Below the pieces are notes generated by a model. That model was not told the DNA's origin and ran no database searches. It worked only from the letters and a program-made list of their open reading frames with translations. This document shows, piece by piece, positions 46,848 through 64,000 of a stretch of DNA of 64,000 nt. A program made the position numbers and the translations under genes. The DNA comes from Escherichia coli (lineage in GTDB: Bacteria; Pseudomonadota; Gammaproteobacteria; Enterobacterales; Enterobacteriaceae), in assembly GCF_017348835.2 (NCBI RefSeq), contig NZ_CP071375.1, one strand, 5' to 3'. Each line of letters starts with the position of its first letter. Position 1 is the stretch's first letter.

Positions 46848-46854
46848 AACTGCA

Positions 46855-46949
46855 TAAAAAAATAGAGTCTGTCGACATCCGCCAGACTCTACAGTACACA
46901 CAGCAGTGCATCCGCGTCTTAAATCCGGCATTGTCTCCTCTGCGCCGGT
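46855..46949 (-). ncRNA. mcaS: small regulatory RNA McaS (IsrA)
   Basis: Minus-strand sequence ACCGGCGCAGAGGAGACAATGCCGGATTTAAGACGCGGATGCACTGCTGTGTGTACTGTAGAGTCTGGCGGATGTCGACAGACTCTATTTTTTT recognised; ends in a terminator hairpin plus U-run. Confidence 0.85.
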
Positions 46950-50326: not shown

Positions 50327-50448
50327 GCAGGTGAATGCAACGTCAAGCGATGGGCGTTGCGCTCCATATTGTCTTACTTCCTTTTTTGAATTACTGCATA
50401 GCACAATTGATTCGTACGACGCCGACTTTGATGAGTCGGCTTTTTTTT
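50327..50448 (+). ncRNA. fnrS: FNR-regulated small RNA FnrS
   Basis: Sequence GCAGGTGAATGCAACGTCAAGCGATGGGCGTTGCGCTCCATATTGTC...GACGCCGACTTTGATGAGTCGGCTTTTTTTT recognised, with intrinsic terminator. Confidence 0.85.
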
Positions 50449-54728: not shown

Positions 54729-54938
54729 TTAATTTGAATACAATGCAATTCTCGAGGACTGAAGTTTCTCGCAATTAAAATTTATCAGTTTTACTTTCTG
54801 CTCTCTGGAAACGCCTGCTTCTTTTTTACCTGAGAGCATTTTTTCGCATTCTGATTTCGTTAGTTTAGATTTTGAATATCTTGTCCAGTTAGTAGGAGTG
54901 CCACCTTCCTTTTCAATAGTGGCGGTAATTTTATACAT
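54729..54938 (-). CDS. ydaC: Rac prophage small protein YdaC (DUF1187)
   Basis: 69 aa from MYKITATIEKEGG. Confidence 0.75.
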   Translation of the reverse strand: MYKITATIEKEGGTPTNWTRYSKSKLTKSECEKMLSGKKEAGVSREQKVKLINFNCEKLQSSRIALYSN

Positions 54939-55009: not shown

Positions 55010-55897
55010 TCAGGCTGCCAGATCATTATTTCCGATGGAAGCATAATAAGCTTTTTCTGCTTCTGCCGGAGGAATATGGCCCAGCCTTTCCAGCAATCGT
55101 CGATTGTTATACCAGTCCACCCACGTGAGTGTGGCCAGTTCCACTTCTGTCCGGTTTTTCCAGCTCTTACGGTGTATTACCTCCGCTTTGTAAAGACCAT
55201 TGATGCTCTCAGCCATCGCGTTGTCATACGAGTCGCCAGTACTCCCTGTTGATGCCAGTAATCCGGCTTCCTTAAGCCGCTGCGTGTAGGCCAGCGATAC
55301 ATACTGAGAACCTTTATCACTGTGATGGATTGTGCCGGACGGCCGACGGGCCCACAACGCCTGCTCCAGTGCATCCAGCACGAATGTTGTTTCCATGGAT
55401 GATGAGACCTGCCATCCCACGATGTATCCGGCGAACACATCAATGATGAACGCCACATAAACGAAGCCCTGCCATGTGCTTACCCAGGTAAAATCAGCCA
55501 CCCACAACTGGTCTGGACGTTCTGCCACGAACTGACGGTTTACGCGGTCGCATGCGGCAACGGCTTTCCGGCTGACGGTAGTGCGGACCTTTTTACCCCG
55601 GAGAACACCGGCAAGTCCCATAACTGCCATGAGACGTGCCACAGTGCATCTGGCCACTCTGATACCTTCCCGTAACAACTGACGCCAGACTTTACGCACA
55701 CCGTATACCTGGTGATTTTCATCGTATACGCGCTGTATCTCTTTCTTCAGCCAGTCATCGTGCTGCGCACGGGCACTGCGTTTATCCGGATGATGTCGCT
55801 GTTGCTGACAATGGTAATACGTTGACGGGGCAATATGCAGTTCGCTGCATACCGGTCCGACCCCGTACTGCTCACGCAGCTTATCCAGCAGTGGCAT
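55010..55897 (-). CDS. IS3-family transposase OrfB (DDE integrase domain)
   Basis: 295-aa frame with rve-type catalytic region; start overlaps the orfA stop (TAATG) next to an A-rich slippery stretch. Confidence 0.9.
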   Translation of the reverse strand: MPLLDKLREQYGVGPVCSELHIAPSTYYHCQQQRHHPDKRSARAQHDDWLKKEIQRVYDENHQVYGVRKVWRQLLREGIRVARCTVARLMAVMGLAGVLRGKKVRTTVSRKAVAACDRVNRQFVAERPDQLWVADFTWVSTWQGFVYVAFIIDVFAGYIVGWQVSSSMETTFVLDALEQALWARRPSGTIHHSDKGSQYVSLAYTQRLKEAGLLASTGSTGDSYDNAMAESINGLYKAEVIHRKSWKNRTEVELATLTWVDWYNNRRLLERLGHIPPAEAEKAYYASIGNNDLAA

Positions 55898-56223
55898 TAT
55901 TTTTTCCAGAGGCGGTCGAACTCCGCCTTCGCAAAATAAGCGGAAGCCTGGCGAAGGATATCGTTACTGCGGCGCAGTTCACGATTTTCACGTTCCAGCT
56001 CTTTCAGACGCTGACGTTCAGCGGTGGTGAGTCCACCATCACCACTCCCGGTATCCCGCTCATGCTGGCGAACCCAGACACGCAGAGTCTCCGGCGTACA
56101 GCCAATCTTTGGGGCAATGGAACAAATTGCCGCCCACTGTGAGTCATATTCATCCTGACTTTCCAGAACCATACGAATCGCCCGCTGACGGACTTCGGGG
56201 GAAAAACGAGTATTTTTAGTCAT
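55897..56223 (-). CDS. IS3-family transposase OrfA (HTH)
   Basis: 108 aa [42 protein letters not shown]... recognised as IS629/IS1203-type OrfA. Confidence 0.9.
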
Positions 56224-56277
56224 CCTGTTTACCTCTTTCTCAGGGAGTTTAGTCTCCAGGATTTCCGGGGCGGTTCA

Positions 56278-56438
56278 GTTCGTTTATTCCATCTTTCGAG
56301 TGCTTCTTTTTCACTTCCACCATAACCGGTTCGGGATTCGCATCCGTTACACTTCGCTCGGTAATATCCTGAAATGGCTTTCACCGTTACTGATGGACAA
56401 CCACAAAATGGACATGGTTTAACATTGTCATATCTCAT
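56278..56438 (-). pseudogene. ralR: restriction-alleviation protein RalR (Lar), 3' end interrupted by the IS element
   Basis: Frame MRYDNVKPCPFCGCPSVTVKAISGYYRAKCNGCESRTGYGGSEKEALERWNKR runs into the IS terminal repeat, after which 15 IS-encoded codons follow. Confidence 0.75.
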
Positions 56439-56494: not shown

Positions 56495-57304
56495 TTATTC
56501 CTCTGAATTATCGATTACACTGTATTCCCCGGTTAATACAGAGGAATCTGCAGGATCGATTGTCAGTGGTTCCTTTTCATCCATTGATACTGCACGCTGG
56601 ATCTCAATTGATACGGGCAGATATTTGAACAGGCGACGAATAGCCGTTTTCTTTGCCATTTCTTCCCAGTGAGTTACCCACGGCCCGTTATTACCAGCTT
56701 TACTCAGGCTGCGCACCAGCTCAATCTGTTTGCGCGTCATAACTTCAAACTGAGTACCTCCGTCTTTCAGTCTTGCGACAGCATAGACGTGGGTAACCGG
56801 GGCATCTTCGTTTTCTCCCGGGCGGTGTATTAACTTTTCATCAAGGCCAAATTCGAAGCTAAACTCGTCACCTTCACGGACAACACGGGCTGACAGGCTG
56901 GCGATTTGACCAGAACGGCGAGCCAGATCAATCATGCCGCGATAGCCAATGATTAGCTGAACGTTCTTTTTACCGCTCTTTTCGTTTTTATTACCAAAAG
57001 GCAGTAAATATGCATGACCGAGGGCGCTACCTGGCTCAAGTCCGAGCTGTGAACACTGTACGATCGCACTGACAAAACTCATAGTGTCACAGTTTCCTAA
57101 CGCCGGAACTTTACGAATTTCTGTGGTGGCGATACGGATCATACGTTCAGCCGTCATATGGCGTGGAAGAGCTGCTGCCAGTTGCTCTTTCATTGATGGC
57201 TGGTTAATAAAACTAATCACGTCGCTATTTTTAACTGCTGCTGGTGCACGGTTTCCCTGAGTTTTTTGCAGATCGGCTTTTGCGATTGGTGGTTGCTTAG
57301 TCAT
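56495..57304 (-). CDS. recT: recombinase RecT (single-strand annealing protein)
   Basis: 269 aa from [18 protein letters not shown], sequence recognised. Confidence 0.95.
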
Positions 57305-58436
57305 TTGCATATTCCTTAGCCCAGCGGGGCAGTGATAATGTCTTAATAGCTGGCCATTCATCGGTATTCAGGCAGTCAGACAGGGTTCGCAGATTGCGGT
57401 GATATTCCTGTTGACCTGCCAGTTTTGCTTCTTCGCCCATCATGAAAATTTCAACCGGATAACGTCCGCATTCAATAGTTGTGCTGGCAACCAGAAAAAC
57501 GAAAGTTGGCTGCACTCCAAACTGTGCTTCATAACCGTCACTGTAGAATGCATCCTGAACGTGATAGCGGTAGTCGTAATAAGCGGTTTTGAATCGTTGA
57601 ATATCCGCCGTAGTTTTCACGTCCATGATCCAGTGAAATTCAGGGATAATTTTGTCCGGACGGCACCGACACAAAATTCCTGTTTCAGGATCTTCCCAGT
57701 AAATTGATGATTCAGCGTGTCCGGCGCTTTCAACAAGCCATTGCCCCAGCGGCAAAGCCATAACGCTTTGATACATGAGTTCAATTTTCCGGCCTTCTTC
57801 CGCAGTGATAACCGTTTTTCCTGTGCTTGCGCATTCCATCAGAAACGCTTTCTCTTCTTCTTTTCCGGCGTTTGTACGGCGGTTAAATTCAGGTGCTACG
57901 ATAAAGCGGTTACTGAATTCTTCCGGTTCAAGTACCCGGCAGTGGAAAGCAGTTCCTAAATCGAGCGTTTTTGTCTTTGTGGTGTCCACGGGGGCATTTT
58001 TACGCCACAAATATAGTGCCGGAGTATCAGCAATGTCATCGAGCTGAGACTTACTGATACCGGGACCCGCGTGGTAATTCTCATTCGAAATTCCGTAATA
58101 AATACCTGGCTCTATGTCTTCTACGATTACGGGATCTGCGACTTCGCCAGTTTCATCACTGCAATCGCGATGCGGATCGCTGCCAGCATTCTCATTGTGC
58201 GGATGTTCAGCGCCTTCCATTTCCTCCGGATCATTTTCCTTAGCTTCAACCTGACTCTCTTCATCGAATGTTTCCTGGTATGTTGCGTCGCCCATCACCG
58301 CACCACAGTCAGGGCAGTTATCCCCGCCAGTCTGGCCGCAGGCATTGCAGGCTATTTCCGGTTCCTGTTGCACTACTGGCTCAGGTTGATTCATATCTGG
58401 GCTGGTTTTTTCCGTTTCTGGCTGGTTCTGGTACAC
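57297..58436 (-). CDS. recE: exonuclease VIII RecE, C-terminal nuclease portion only (5'-truncated)
   Basis: 379-aa frame ending ...[11 protein letters not shown] and overlapping the recT start; K-12 RecE is 866 aa; frame open upstream only to a stop at 58521-58523; first start-like codon is GTG. Confidence 0.8.
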
Positions 58437-58474
58437 ACAATCGCGAGTCTGGATCCCCTTACCTGGCTGACACC

Positions 58475-59227
58475 ATGCATTTGTCAGCAGAGGAGCATGG
58501 TGCGTATTTGTTGCTGATGTTCAATTACTGGCAAACAGGAAAGCCAATACCTAAAAACAGGCTGGCAAAAATTGCCCGTCTGACTAACGAGCGATGGGCT
58601 GATGTTGAACCATCCTTGCAGGAGTTTTTTTGCGATAACGGCGAGGAATGGGTGCATCTTCGGATTGAGGAAGATCTGGCATCAGTCAGGGAAAAATTAA
58701 CCAAAAAATCAGCCGCAGGAAAAGCATCTGTTCAGGCCAGAAGAAGCAGAAAGGAAGCAGATGTTCAAACAAAACAAGAGAGAAATTTAACAGGTGTTCA
58801 AACAGATGTTGAAGTGGTGTTTGAACATGATGTCAACACAAAGGCAACTAATAAAGATACAGATAAAGATCTAAAAACAGATCCCCCCCTAAATCCCCCC
58901 CGGGGGAATCGAGGTGTCAAAAAGTTTGACCCTCTGGATATTGCTTTGCCGAACTGGATTTCTGTCTCGCTTTGGCGTGAGTGGGTTGAATTTCGCCAGG
59001 CATTGCGAAAACCGATTCGAACGGAGCAGGGCGCTAACGGGGCGATACGGGAGCTGGAAAAATTCCGCCAGCAGGGTTTTTCACCTGAGCAGGTGATTCG
59101 ACACAGCATCGCCAATGAATACCAGGGCTTGTTCGCGCCAAAAGGTGTTCGACCTGAGACGTTACTCCGACAGGTTAACACCGTCTCGTTACCGGATAGT
59201 GCGATCCCGCCAGGCTTCAGGGGGTAA
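58475..59227 (+). CDS. ydaU: prophage replication protein, DUF1376 plus DnaT-like C-terminal domain (YdaU-like)
   Basis: 250 aa from [19 protein letters not shown]; upstream in-frame residues (SPYLADT) still look like DUF1376, suggesting the true N-terminus is missing. Confidence 0.6.
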
Positions 59228-60764: not shown

Positions 60765-60779
60765 TTGCCGGAGGCGCTT

Positions 60780-61211
60780 ATGGCAAAAGTATTTACACAA
60801 GAAGAGCGGGAAAAAATTAAAGGGCAGGTTGTTGAACTAGTACGCCGGAGTGGGCGCGAGACGTTACGGCAACTGGAAGCCAAGACAGGTGCGACAAGAT
60901 ATCTGATGAGCGTTCTCGCCAGAGAGCTGGTTGCCAGTGGCGATGTATACAACTCTGGTTACGGGTTATTCCCGTCTGAACAGGCTCGTAAGGACTGGCA
61001 AAATGCCCGCAAAAAACTATCTAGGGCAAAGGTGAAGAAACCATCTGTGGTTGATCCGGACCTTATCTGGTCATTACCAGACGGAGAAATACGCCGCTAC
61101 GACAGGCGTCTGAACATAATCTGTCGCGAGTGCCGGAAGAGCGAAGTTATGCAGCGTGTGCTGGCGTTTTATCAGAATGGTTTTCGAGAGAGGCTTGGAG
61201 ATCAGGGATGA
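60780..61211 (+). CDS. hypothetical prophage protein
   Basis: 143 aa from MAKVFTQEEREKIKGQVVELVRR; GGAGG RBS 5-6 nt upstream of the ATG at 60780. Confidence 0.55.
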   Translation: MAKVFTQEEREKIKGQVVELVRRSGRETLRQLEAKTGATRYLMSVLARELVASGDVYNSGYGLFPSEQARKDWQNARKKLSRAKVKKPSVVDPDLIWSLPDGEIRRYDRRLNIICRECRKSEVMQRVLAFYQNGFRERLGDQG

Positions 61212-61404
61212 ATAGAACGATGAAGGATGGAAGCTACATATTCTCGGTACTAAGATTTATTTTTCTGACACAAAATGACCATTTGGCGTTACATAATCCC
61301 AAAAAAACGTATCAAAAATCTCAAAATGCGTTACGATTAGAGAGTATTTTGATTCTGCGTGCTCATTTTTTGATTGCTGTGGCTTTTTGTTGTGGGAGTG
61401 TTGA

Positions 61405-62559
61405 ATGGATTATTTATCAGAAGTGTTAAAAATCATTGAAGGTGCAACAAAGGCAAATGCTTCGATGGCTAGTAATTATGCTGGGTTGCTGGCAGATAAG
61501 CTCGAACAAAAAGGGGAGGTCAAGCAAGCCAGAATGATAAGAGAAAGGTTGCTTAGAGCTCCCCAGGCGTTGGCAGGAGCTCAAAGGGCTGGAGGTGGGA
61601 TATCTCTGGGCTCATTACCGGTAGATATTGATAGTCGACTCAACACTGTTGATGTCAGTTATCCTAAATTAGACAGTTCAGAGATTTTTCTGCCTGCAGC
61701 AATCAGTACCCGTGTTGAAGAGTTTATCACTAATGTTCAACGTTATGATGAGTTTGTTAAAGCTGATGCAGCATTGCCGAGTCGTATGCTCGTGTATGGA
61801 AAGCCAGGAACAGGTAAGACTATGTTATCTAAGTACATCGCTACCCGCTTAGATTTTCCACTTCTTACAGTGCGTTGCGATACTTTGATTAGTAGTTTAT
61901 TGGGACAAACCAGCAAAAATCTTAGACAGGTTTTCGATTATGTAATGCAGAGGCCATCAGTGCTTTTTTTAGACGAATTTGATGCTTTAGCTGGAGCAAG
62001 AGGTAATGAGAGAGATATAGGTGAGCTTCAGCGAGTTGTCATTTCACTATTGCAGAATATGGATGCGGCATCAGAGGATACGGTAATTATTGCCTCAACT
62101 AACCATGAGCAACTTCTGGATCCTGCAATCTGGAGGCGATTTAGCTTCAGAATTCCAATGCCTCTGCCTGACATACATCAGAGAGAGTTAATTTGGAAAA
62201 ATCGTTTAAAGAATATGATATGTAGCGATCTAGATTTAAGTGATTTATCAAGAAAATCGGAAGGATTATCCGGAGCAATAATTGAACAGGTGAGCTTGGA
62301 TGCACGTAGGGATGCAGTTATTGAAGGTGCAAGTGTGATAAATCACCACAAATTGTATAGGCGTTTGTATCTTGCTCAATCGCTTATGGAAGGTGTAAAT
62401 TTAAGCACTTACGAAGATGAAATTCGTTGGTTACGTTCTAAAGATAAAAAATTATTTTCTATCAGAGTTCTTGCTAATTTGTACAAACTTACATCAAGAG
62501 TAATTTCAAACATTCTGAAGGAGTCAGGAGCATATGAGCAGAAGGGGTACACAGTTTAG
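61405..62559 (+). CDS. classic-clade AAA ATPase with ~125-aa N-terminal extension; first gene of the ATPase-protease cassette
   Basis: 384 aa; Walker A GKPGTGKT (61798-61821), Walker B VLFLDEFD (D190/E191 at 61972-61977), sensor-1 IIASTN, arginine-finger region DPAIWRRF; GGGAG RBS; AT-rich. Confidence 0.85.
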   Translation: MDYLSEVLKIIEGATKANASMASNYAGLLADKLEQKGEVKQARMIRERLLRAPQALAGAQRAGGGISLGSLPVDIDSRLNTVDVSYPKLDSSEIFLPAAISTRVEEFITNVQRYDEFVKADAALPSRMLVYGKPGTGKTMLSKYIATRLDFPLLTVRCDTLISSLLGQTSKNLRQVFDYVMQRPSVLFLDEFDALAGARGNERDIGELQRVVISLLQNMDAASEDTVIIASTNHEQLLDPAIWRRFSFRIPMPLPDIHQRELIWKNRLKNMICSDLDLSDLSRKSEGLSGAIIEQVSLDARRDAVIEGASVINHHKLYRRLYLAQSLMEGVNLSTYEDEIRWLRSKDKKLFSIRVLANLYKLTSRVISNILKESGAYEQKGYTV

Positions 62560-64000
62560 TAACGCAAAAGTTACAAACCCAACGTTAAGAATCCCTTTTT
62601 CCAGTAGTGACTTGGGTGCAATAGTAAACGCTGGCGGTGGGGCAAAGGTATTGGTTGATGTAACAGCCGAATATAGACAAGGGCTAGTAAGAAATTTAAC
62701 AACCAGTAAACATTATTTAGAATCCAAACTTTCAGAGTACCCTGGAAGCTTGGGTACTTTGGTTTTCAAATTAAGAGACCAGGGAATAGCCAAAACGCAT
62801 AGGCCGAACAAAATTGCTCAAGAGGCTGGATTGCAAAATGCCGGTCATGCCAAAATAGATGAAATGTTGGTTGCTGCTCATGCCGGCTGTTTTGACGTAT
62901 TAGAGTCAGTCATTTTAAATCGGAATATTAAAGCGATTTTGGCTAATCTAAGCGCGATTGAGCGCATTGAACCTTGGGATGAGAATAGGAAGGTTCCGGG
63001 AGGCACTGATGGTTTGTTTGAATCATCAAACATCCTTGTACGACTATTTGAGTACACAGGTGAAGATGCAACTTACAACAACTATGAAAACGTTATTTCT
63101 ATATTAGAACAATACGGAGTTAAATATGATGAAATTAGACAAAAATGTGGTCTTCCCTTATTAAGGATAATGGATTTATCCCCAAGTGATAGATATATAT
63201 TAGACATTCTCATTGATTACCCGGGTATAAGAACGTTAATTCCAGAACCAAAATATTCAGCATTCCCGGTTAGTGTAAGTGATTCTGTTGGCATTGAAAC
63301 AAATAGCTTTCCCGTACCATCAGAAGAATTACCCATTGTTGCTGTATTTGACACTGGGGTAAGCCCCATCGCGGCAACAATTACTCCTTGGGTAGTGAGT
63401 AGGGAAACATACGTAATTCCTCCTGATACGAGTTATGAACATGGGACTATGGTGTCTTCATTGATATCAGGCGCTCATTTTTTAAATGACAATCATCCAT
63501 GGATTCCTGATACAAAATCTAAAATCCATGATGTTTGTGCTTTAGATGAAAATGGATCTTATATATCAGATTTAATTCTGAGGCTAGCAGATGCTGTAAA
63601 TAAAAGACCAGATATAAAAGTCTGGAATTTGTCTTTGGGAGGCGGACCATGTAATGAGCAGATGTTTAGTGATTTTGCGATGGAGTTAGATCGGCTCAGC
63701 GATAAATTTGGTATTTTGTTTGTAGTTGCTGCAGGTAATTATGTAGATGAACCTATACGTACATGGCCAAATCCTGATCCGCTTGGAGGTGCTGATTTAA
63801 TTTCCTCTCCTGGAGAGTCAGTCCGAGCACTAACAGTTGGTTCAGTTTCTCATATGGAAGCTAATGATGCTTTAAGTGAAATTGGAACACCGACACCATA
63901 TACTCGTCGTGGCCCTGGTCCTGTATTTACTCCAAAGCCAGATATAATCCATGCTGGCGGTGGGGTTCATAGACCTTGGAATGTAGGAGCAAGCAGTTTA
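62534..64000 (+). CDS. subtilisin-like (S8) serine peptidase, partial (runs off window end); second gene of the cassette
   Basis: ATG at 62534 overlaps the ATPase 3' end by 26 nt; catalytic Asp in VAVFDTG (63350-63352), His in YEHGTMVSS (63440-63442), S8 motifs VWNLSLGG and VVAAGN (Asn at 63737-63739); catalytic Ser expected beyond 64000; ~270 aa precede the catalytic core. Confidence 0.8.
   Translation, partial: MSRRGTQFSNAKVTNPTLRIPFSSSDLGAIVNAGGGAKVLVDVTAEYRQGLVRNLTTSKHYLESKLSEYPGSLGTLVFKLRDQGIAKTHRPNKIAQEAGLQNAGHAKIDEMLVAAHAGCFDVLESVILNRNIKAILANLSAIERIEPWDENRKVPGGTDGLFESSNILVRLFEYTGEDATYNNYENVISILEQYGVKYDEIRQKCGLPLLRIMDLSPSDRYILDILIDYPGIRTLIPEPKYSAFPVSVSDSVGIETNSFPVPSEELPIVAVFDTGVSPIAATITPWVVSRETYVIPPDTSYEHGTMVSSLISGAHFLNDNHPWIPDTKSKIHDVCALDENGSYISDLILRLADAVNKRPDIKVWNLSLGGGPCNEQMFSDFAMELDRLSDKFGILFVVAAGNYVDEPIRTWPNPDPLGGADLISSPGESVRALTVGSVSHMEANDALSEIGTPTPYTRRGPGPVFTPKPDIIHAGGGVHRPWNVGASSL

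Follow-up and report, generated by a model that had tools for sequence, protein, structure and literature searches.

The gene pair at the end of the window

The window analyzed here is a stretch of Escherichia coli DNA of 64,000 nucleotides whose end is taken up by two overlapping genes, one for an AAA ATPase and one, cut by the window end, for an S8 (subtilisin-like) peptidase. The question raised by this locus is what the pair is: the anti-phage defense system ietAS, a diverged or distinct family with the same domain composition, or a morphogenesis or housekeeping module. Judging from its sequence, the pair is very probably the canonical ietAS, which is spelled iteA/iteS by NCBI and listed as 'Gao_Iet' in DefenseFinder. 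Gao et al. 2020 reportedly presented ietAS as a defense system, and the IetAS pair on pTiC58 of Agrobacterium tumefaciens (Yamamoto et al. 2009) is said to be the founding toxin–antitoxin pair. The system has already been published, named, and routinely annotated, and the copy in the window is no different from the standard E. coli allele. The features of the locus are as follows.

Spacer, 61212..61404, + strand: AT-rich, 193 nt, from the DUF977/Ren-like gene to ietA; presumed regulatory region.
ietA, 61405..62559, + strand: classical-clade AAA ATPase of 384 amino acids, complete in the window; putative antitoxin/regulator, as judged from homologues.
ietA/ietS overlap, 62534..62559, + strand: 26 nt, the 3' end of ietA with the 5' end of ietS.
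ietS, 62534..64000, + strand: S8 subtilisin-like peptidase, about 489 of 754 codons, the gene being cut by the end of the window; putative toxin/effector, as judged from homologues.

ietA and ietS are co-directional and adjacent, with ietA upstream. The 26-nt overlap given in the preliminary description was read directly from the sequence. In the list of open reading frames, the ietS frame begins with the ATG at 62534 and stays open to the end of the window over 489 codons, and the PGAP annotation uses the same ATG. AAGGAG and AGGAG are located 10 nt and 3 nt upstream of this codon, respectively. The overlap suggests that translation of ietS may be coupled to that of ietA. On the minus strand, no open reading frame longer than 59 amino acids is listed within 61405–64000.

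Over its entire length, the window shares 99.99% identity with a region of E. coli PE164 (NZ_CP114128.1, 2344843–2408842; hereafter L001), where the complete ietS gene can be read.

Motifs and family assignment of IetA

The motifs of the ATPase are intact, as had been claimed for it. Walker A is GKPGTGKT (residues 132–139, nt 61798–61821) with K138, Walker B is VLFLDE (residues 186–191) with D190 and E191, and sensor-1 is N233 in an ASTN segment. Arg244 and Arg245 align with the arginine-finger segment of both p97 D1 and p97 D2, and the alignment with these two domains covers the whole ATPase core. Pfam AAA (PF00004) matches residues 128–253 (E 5.6e-30), and no other Pfam domain matched IetA. 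A sequence search of solved structures with IetA gave matches only to generic p97/Cdc48-type ATPases.

The pore-loop-1 position differs among these proteins. The residues are L-L-G in IetA, W-F-G in p97 D2, and L-A-G in p97 D1. Processive unfoldases typically carry an aromatic residue in pore-loop-1. Since IetA has none there, threading of a substrate through its ring is not assured.

Two dedicated profiles place the ATPase. PADLOC IetA (PDLC02196) matches residues 1–374 at positions 1–371 of 374 (E 8.9e-143), and the NCBIfam equivalog NF042959 "anti-phage ATPase IteA" gives 526.6 bits, passing its cut-off of 510. Other AAA families were considered and rejected. TRIP13 in PADLOC scores E 2e-16, which falls short of the IetA value by 125 orders of magnitude and reflects the shared AAA core. 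The NCBIfam models for PAN, CDC48, and FtsH likewise match the AAA core only, with 80–124 bits against cut-offs of 500–1008.

Motifs, family assignment, and predicted structure of IetS

The preliminary description had recognized the catalytic Asp and His of an S8 peptidase in canonical order, and both were located in the window: Asp273 in FDTGV (nt 63350) and His303 in HGTMV (nt 63440). Pfam Peptidase_S8 matches the window part of the protein with an E of 6.9e-14. The catalytic Ser is Ser505 (GTS505FAAP), which lies past the end of the window and was read only in the full-length gene of L001. All three residues are invariant in 43 homologues. The pair has intact ATPase motifs and an Asp-His-Ser triad, of which Ser505 comes from L001 only.

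PADLOC IetS (PDLC02197) matches the window fragment with an E of 9.2e-175 over profile positions 3–479 of 749. NCBIfam NF042956 (IteS) gives the fragment 597 bits over 478 of 747 positions, a score that is this low only because 266 residues are missing; the full-length protein of 754 amino acids (L001 21335–23599) scores 1042.8 bits and passes the cut-off of 900. The profiles of PADLOC, the NCBIfam equivalogs, and the iteA/iteS names in RefSeq agree, so the likeness to ietAS that had been suggested by domain composition holds. A reader who has only the sequence is thus able to recognize ietAS by eye.

In a structure model of IetS (pLDDT 82.4, pTM 0.86), the N-terminal 260 residues form a long helix and two beta-alpha-beta-beta-alpha-beta modules, and the C-terminus forms a beta-sandwich. 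It is plausible from the model that the two modules are ferredoxin-like and share the fold of subtilisin propeptides. The fold matches of this N-terminal region are generic, with ACT domains scoring as high as propeptides. There is no solved structure of IetS; the sequence matches among solved structures are only generic subtilases with E of about 1e-5.

Prophage context and base composition

The prophage is Rac, integrated at ttcA, as the order ttcA-intR-xisR-rcbA-ralR-recT-recE'-ydaU-ydaV confirms, in agreement with the earlier assignment to a Rac-type prophage. In the RefSeq annotation of PE164, the left part runs ttcA, intR, xisR, rcbA, an IS3 element, ralR, recT, and an N-terminally truncated recE. 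These are followed by ydaU, a DnaC-like loader, DUF1627, DUF977, iteA, and iteS, and then by DUF1367, DUF1364, DUF1133, lysis genes, trkG, and tail-fiber remnants. The Rac prophage of the window is decayed: recE is truncated, racC-kilR-racR-ydaS-ydaT are missing, and an IS3 element is inserted. Strain 266917_2 has a Rac that is more complete, and ietAS occupies the same position in it.

The neighbors of the pair indicate the kind of site it occupies. The DUF977 protein upstream of ietA is classed by PHROG 142 (E 2.6e-46) as a "Ren-like exclusion protein", and the DUF1367 protein downstream of ietS is NinB-like (PHROG 319). The PHROG search found NinB-like, HNH, and Q-like genes in the downstream flank, the DUF1133 product being the Q-like antiterminator. 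With a Ren-like gene on one side and NinB-like and Q-like genes on the other, ietAS lies where a lambdoid genome has its ren/nin accessory slot.

This position also bears on whether the pair could be a phage morphogenesis or housekeeping module, the scenario that the preliminary description had said would overturn its reading. Such a module could be a prohead protease paired with an ATPase, or a quality control protease like FtsH. In the phage record ON470595, the ATPase bears the label "cell division protein FtsH", and partial NCBIfam matches to FtsH, PAN, and CDC48 point in the same direction. However, those matches cover the generic AAA core (the FtsH models give 80–101 bits against cut-offs of 600–1008), and neither an M41 peptidase nor a membrane segment occurs in the pair. 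The best PHROG matches are to 3757 and 3964, two dedicated families whose function is unknown and which are not head or tail families. The two genes belong to the early/nin region, with the phage replication genes before them and the NinB-like and Q antiterminator genes after them; the terminase and head genes are far away. The profile scores and the gene position rule out this module, whose probability we regard as practically nil.

The GC content is 40.0% in the ietAS coding block but 48.1% in the left part of Rac; in the chromosomal part of the window it reaches 50.8%. The AT-rich block described earlier is thereby borne out, and its low GC content marks a foreign origin. A hairpin with a 15-bp stem (AAATCAAACCCGC-TGTA-GCGGGTTTGATTT) is located 8 nt past the ietS stop codon in L001, which fits a self-contained cassette. 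In all probability, ietAS is an accessory (moron) cassette of the decayed E. coli Rac prophage.

Distribution of the cassette

Among 5,426 complete E. coli genomes, megablast found full-length matches to 61200–64000 with at least 99% identity in 77. These copies are chromosomal, one per genome, and every match takes in the tail end of the same DUF977 gene upstream. The junction from DUF977 through the spacer to ietA is common to all 77, and each of them matches the cassette of the window at 99.5% identity or more. A more sensitive search added only one copy, the divergent one of strain CT282 (65.5%). Since 77 copies are nearly identical and one is divergent, E. coli has essentially one ietAS allele. 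The preliminary description had allowed for a diverged or distinct family, a possibility dismissed by the match of 77 of the 78 ietAS-bearing complete genomes at 99.5% or more. The ietA DNA of the window agrees with iteA (WP_000385105.1) in strains PE164 and 266917_2 at 99.6–100% identity. Of the 77 genomes carrying the cassette, 60 or more have it annotated by NCBI as iteA/iteS, and all 25 records listed for the megablast search bear these names. In E. coli, the allele occurs almost only in prophages of the Rac type, and at a single insertion point.

The same arrangement is found in a phage. vB_EcoS-683R6, a sequenced, induced, Rac-like phage, carries ietAS with an IetS of 99.1% protein identity. 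Its genes carry no more specific labels than "cell division protein FtsH" and "S8 family peptidase".

Outside E. coli, full-length IetS homologues with 50–84% identity occur in Enterobacterales, Pseudomonas, Burkholderia, Comamonas, and others, and those named by NCBI are mostly called IteS. The protein cluster that contains IetS has 1,093 member sequences. A search of plasmids gave distant relatives only, with about 26–28% identity in Rhizobium/Agrobacterium, the exception being one Acidovorax iteAS at 52%. The S8 peptidases of the Rhizobium/Agrobacterium plasmids match the catalytic and C-terminal parts of IetS but not its N-terminal 260 residues.

The spacer and expression

The spacer upstream of ietA had been described as AT-rich and promoter-like. 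The first part stands, with a GC content of 35%, whereas the second does not: a scan for sigma-70 consensus sites over the spacer (L001 20013–20205, equal to 61212–61404 of the window) gave no site at the scan threshold, although the scan is crude. A search of 61–64 kb against Rfam gave no RNA family. An open reading frame at 61130–61429, unannotated in RefSeq, spans the spacer.

Complete Rac copies have, between racR and ydaS, a PR-like region that drives the rightward operon; in the Rac of the window it is deleted. With no consensus promoter in the spacer and the early-promoter/immunity region lost, expression of ietAS in this strain cannot be assumed. Both observations favor the view that ietAS is intact but silent relic cargo, left promoterless by the deletion of the prophage early region. 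However, the reading frames are conserved at 99.5–100% across the 77 genomes and are undisrupted in the part within the window, the scan is of the crude kind mentioned above, and a homologous ietAS has been cloned with its own native promoter (bioRxiv 10.1101/2022.08.27.505566). A silent relic is accordingly considered very unlikely.

Possible working of the pair

As two papers describe it, ietAS consists of a protease toxin and an ATPase antitoxin, stabilizes plasmids and islands (pTiC58 and SGI1), and protects against phages (PMC13069673, PMC5006074). Defense needs the protease activity, and construction of an ietA mutant proved impossible (PMC13069673, NAR 2026); the molecular mechanism was stated in 2026 to be unknown (PMC13069673). 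Among the papers available to our literature search, none dealt with the structure or mechanism of ietAS. The SGI1 homologue S026-S025 is a functional toxin–antitoxin pair (PMC5006074), and an S8/AAA pair of mycoplasma behaves likewise (PMC8562856). For the only case studied so far, Stokar-Avihail et al. reported that ietAS of Bacillus cereus acts in B. subtilis by abortive infection, that it becomes toxic once yosG of SPbeta is expressed, and that escaper phages are mutated in yosG (bioRxiv 10.1101/2022.08.27.505566). Wu et al. challenged ietAS of E. coli ECOR52 with 29 phages and described "limited anti-phage activity" for the system alone, synergy with Zorya II against T3, and a tendency of E. 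coli ietAS to be prophage-borne (bioRxiv 10.1101/2022.08.21.504612). In a survey of porcine ETEC, ietAS was present in 35 strains (PMC11267873).

By analogy with these homologues, the toxicity of IetS, its neutralization by IetA, and protection against phages may be carried over to the allele in the window. In an uninfected cell, a hexameric ring of IetA driven by ATP would hold IetS inactive. A phage protein, or a change induced by the phage, would upset this control. The freed IetS would then cleave essential proteins of the host, the phage, or both, and growth would stop before progeny are released. Such an arrest may also shut out phages that compete with the resident prophage.

The predicted structure of IetS invites a more specific scheme. 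The propeptide-like modules in the model make it plausible that IetS has an autoinhibited state maintained or remodeled by IetA. In a switch of the zymogen type, the two N-terminal propeptide-like ferredoxin modules would hold IetS inactive, the IetA ring would maintain or reset this state, and phage triggers would divert IetA. We put this forward as a tentative and rather improbable idea based on the model and on the generic fold matches. If true, it would concern the whole ietAS family and not this locus specially.

The same toxin–antitoxin character raises the question of whether ietAS in the window serves mainly as an addiction module that keeps Rac by post-segregational killing, with defense incidental or absent. 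The family was first described as a stabilization system of this kind, on pTiC58 and also on SGI1; an intact ietAS, with ietS read to the end of the window only, is retained in a heavily decayed Rac; and the ECOR52 pair by itself gave limited protection (bioRxiv 10.1101/2022.08.21.504612). On the other hand, addiction and defense are not exclusive roles, and an abortive-infection phenotype and a phage trigger have been reported for the family. The cassette, moreover, sits at a classic position for phage exclusion genes, beside the Ren-like exclusion gene. We consider a mainly addictive role unlikely, though it carries some weight. The preferred reading is a defense cassette of the prophage whose IetS is probably kept in check by IetA.

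Comparison with known systems

The relation of the window pair to the described systems differs from case to case. ietHAS (Liu-DS4), a three-gene variant for which toxin–antitoxin behavior has also been reported, shares the ietA and ietS modules and a protease-dependent defense (PMC13069673), but its SNF2 helicase gene, ietH, is not beside the window pair: no ietH-type SNF2-family helicase is present at the locus, the neighbors being the DUF977/Ren-like gene (PHROG 142) and the NinB-like gene (PHROG 319). Salmonella Genomic Island 1, an integrated mobile element, carries SgiAT (S026-S025), a toxin–antitoxin pair of ATPase and S8 protease that is homologous to the window pair. However, it is nearer to the pair of pTiC58, with which it shares 50% and 36% identity, and resides on an integrative mobilizable island, not in a lambdoid prophage.

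IetAS of pTiC58 has the same architecture of an AAA ATPase antitoxin and an S8 protease toxin, as it is cited in PMC13069673 and PMC5006074. It is a distant relative borne on a plasmid, and it was reportedly described for plasmid stability and not for defense.

The closest counterpart is ietAS of E. coli as defined by PADLOC and by NCBIfam NF042959 and NF042956. The window pair is the same in profiles, gene order, overlap, motifs, and prophage location, with no detectable difference save that the window cuts ietS at codon 489. The locus is a textbook case of a defense system that a lambdoid prophage carries in its accessory slot.

Surroundings and distribution of ietAS

The immediate upstream neighbour of ietA is a DUF977 gene (window 60765-61211, plus strand), which matches PHROG 142 "Ren-like exclusion protein" at an E-value of 2.6e-46. 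Since this Ren-like match adjoins ietA, two putative exclusion or defence functions neighbour each other in the ren/nin slot, the accessory position between the replication genes and the NinB-like/Q genes. On the other side, in the nearly identical E. coli PE164 locus that extends past the window end (L001, NZ_CP114128.1), a perfect hairpin with a 15-bp stem, AAATCAAACCCGC-TGTA-GCGGGTTTGATTT, lies 8 nt 3' of the ietS stop codon (L001 23607-23640, beyond the window end). This hairpin is probably the terminator of the ietAS cassette.

The cassette is also carried by the induced Rac-like phage vB_EcoS-683R6 (ON470595; L003 7872-11265), with 99.1% protein identity. In the phage record, the two genes are named "cell division protein FtsH" and "S8 family peptidase", and a small ORF spanning the spacer is named "kinase (fragment)"; ietAS goes without defence-system annotation there. 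Among the 5,426 complete E. coli genomes searched, a non-standard ietAS allele is found in one alone, that of the avian strain CT282 (NZ_CP095798.1 1198897-1201454, hit H126), with 65.5% nucleotide identity over half of the query.

State of the Rac prophage

The immunity/kil region is absent from the Rac of the window (57297-59227), as compared with a locus carrying a more complete Rac (L004 2173-9028) and with vB_EcoS-683R6 (L003 1-5670). In the window, ydaU is directly abutted by recE with an N-terminal truncation, whereas the same interval in the more complete copies holds full recE, racC, ydaE, kilR, ydaF, racR, ydaS, and ydaT. The genes from racR to ydaT are missing, and therefore the repressor and the early rightward promoter region have both been lost from the prophage.

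Insertion of an IS3-family element, which has a programmed frameshift, between RalA and ralR has set the two partners of this type I toxin-antitoxin pair 1.2 kb apart. In L001, the sitABCD iron/manganese transporter cluster, in which sitB is truncated (L001 33349-36533), comes directly after the tail-fibre remnants with which Rac ends on the right. Over its first 53 kb the window holds the usual core genes of E. coli (puu, psp, ycj, tyrR, fnr, ogt, abg, dbpA, and ttcA).

Features in the chromosomal part and around the RalA/ralR pair (window coordinates)
46854-46949, minus strand, McaS sRNA gene (chromosomal part)
50327-50444, plus strand, FnrS sRNA gene (chromosomal part)
54754-54932, plus strand, RalA antitoxin sRNA gene
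about 55010-56223 (L001 13811-15024), IS3-family element
55826-55942, minus strand, ALIL pseudoknot
about 56229-56438, minus strand, ralR toxin gene

Pore loop of IetA

At pore loop 1 (residues about 163-166, window about 61891-61902), IetA carries L-L-G in place of the W-F-G of the aligned p97 D2 domain. Like p97 D1 (L-A-G), IetA lacks the aromatic residue that AAA unfoldases which thread their substrates typically have there.
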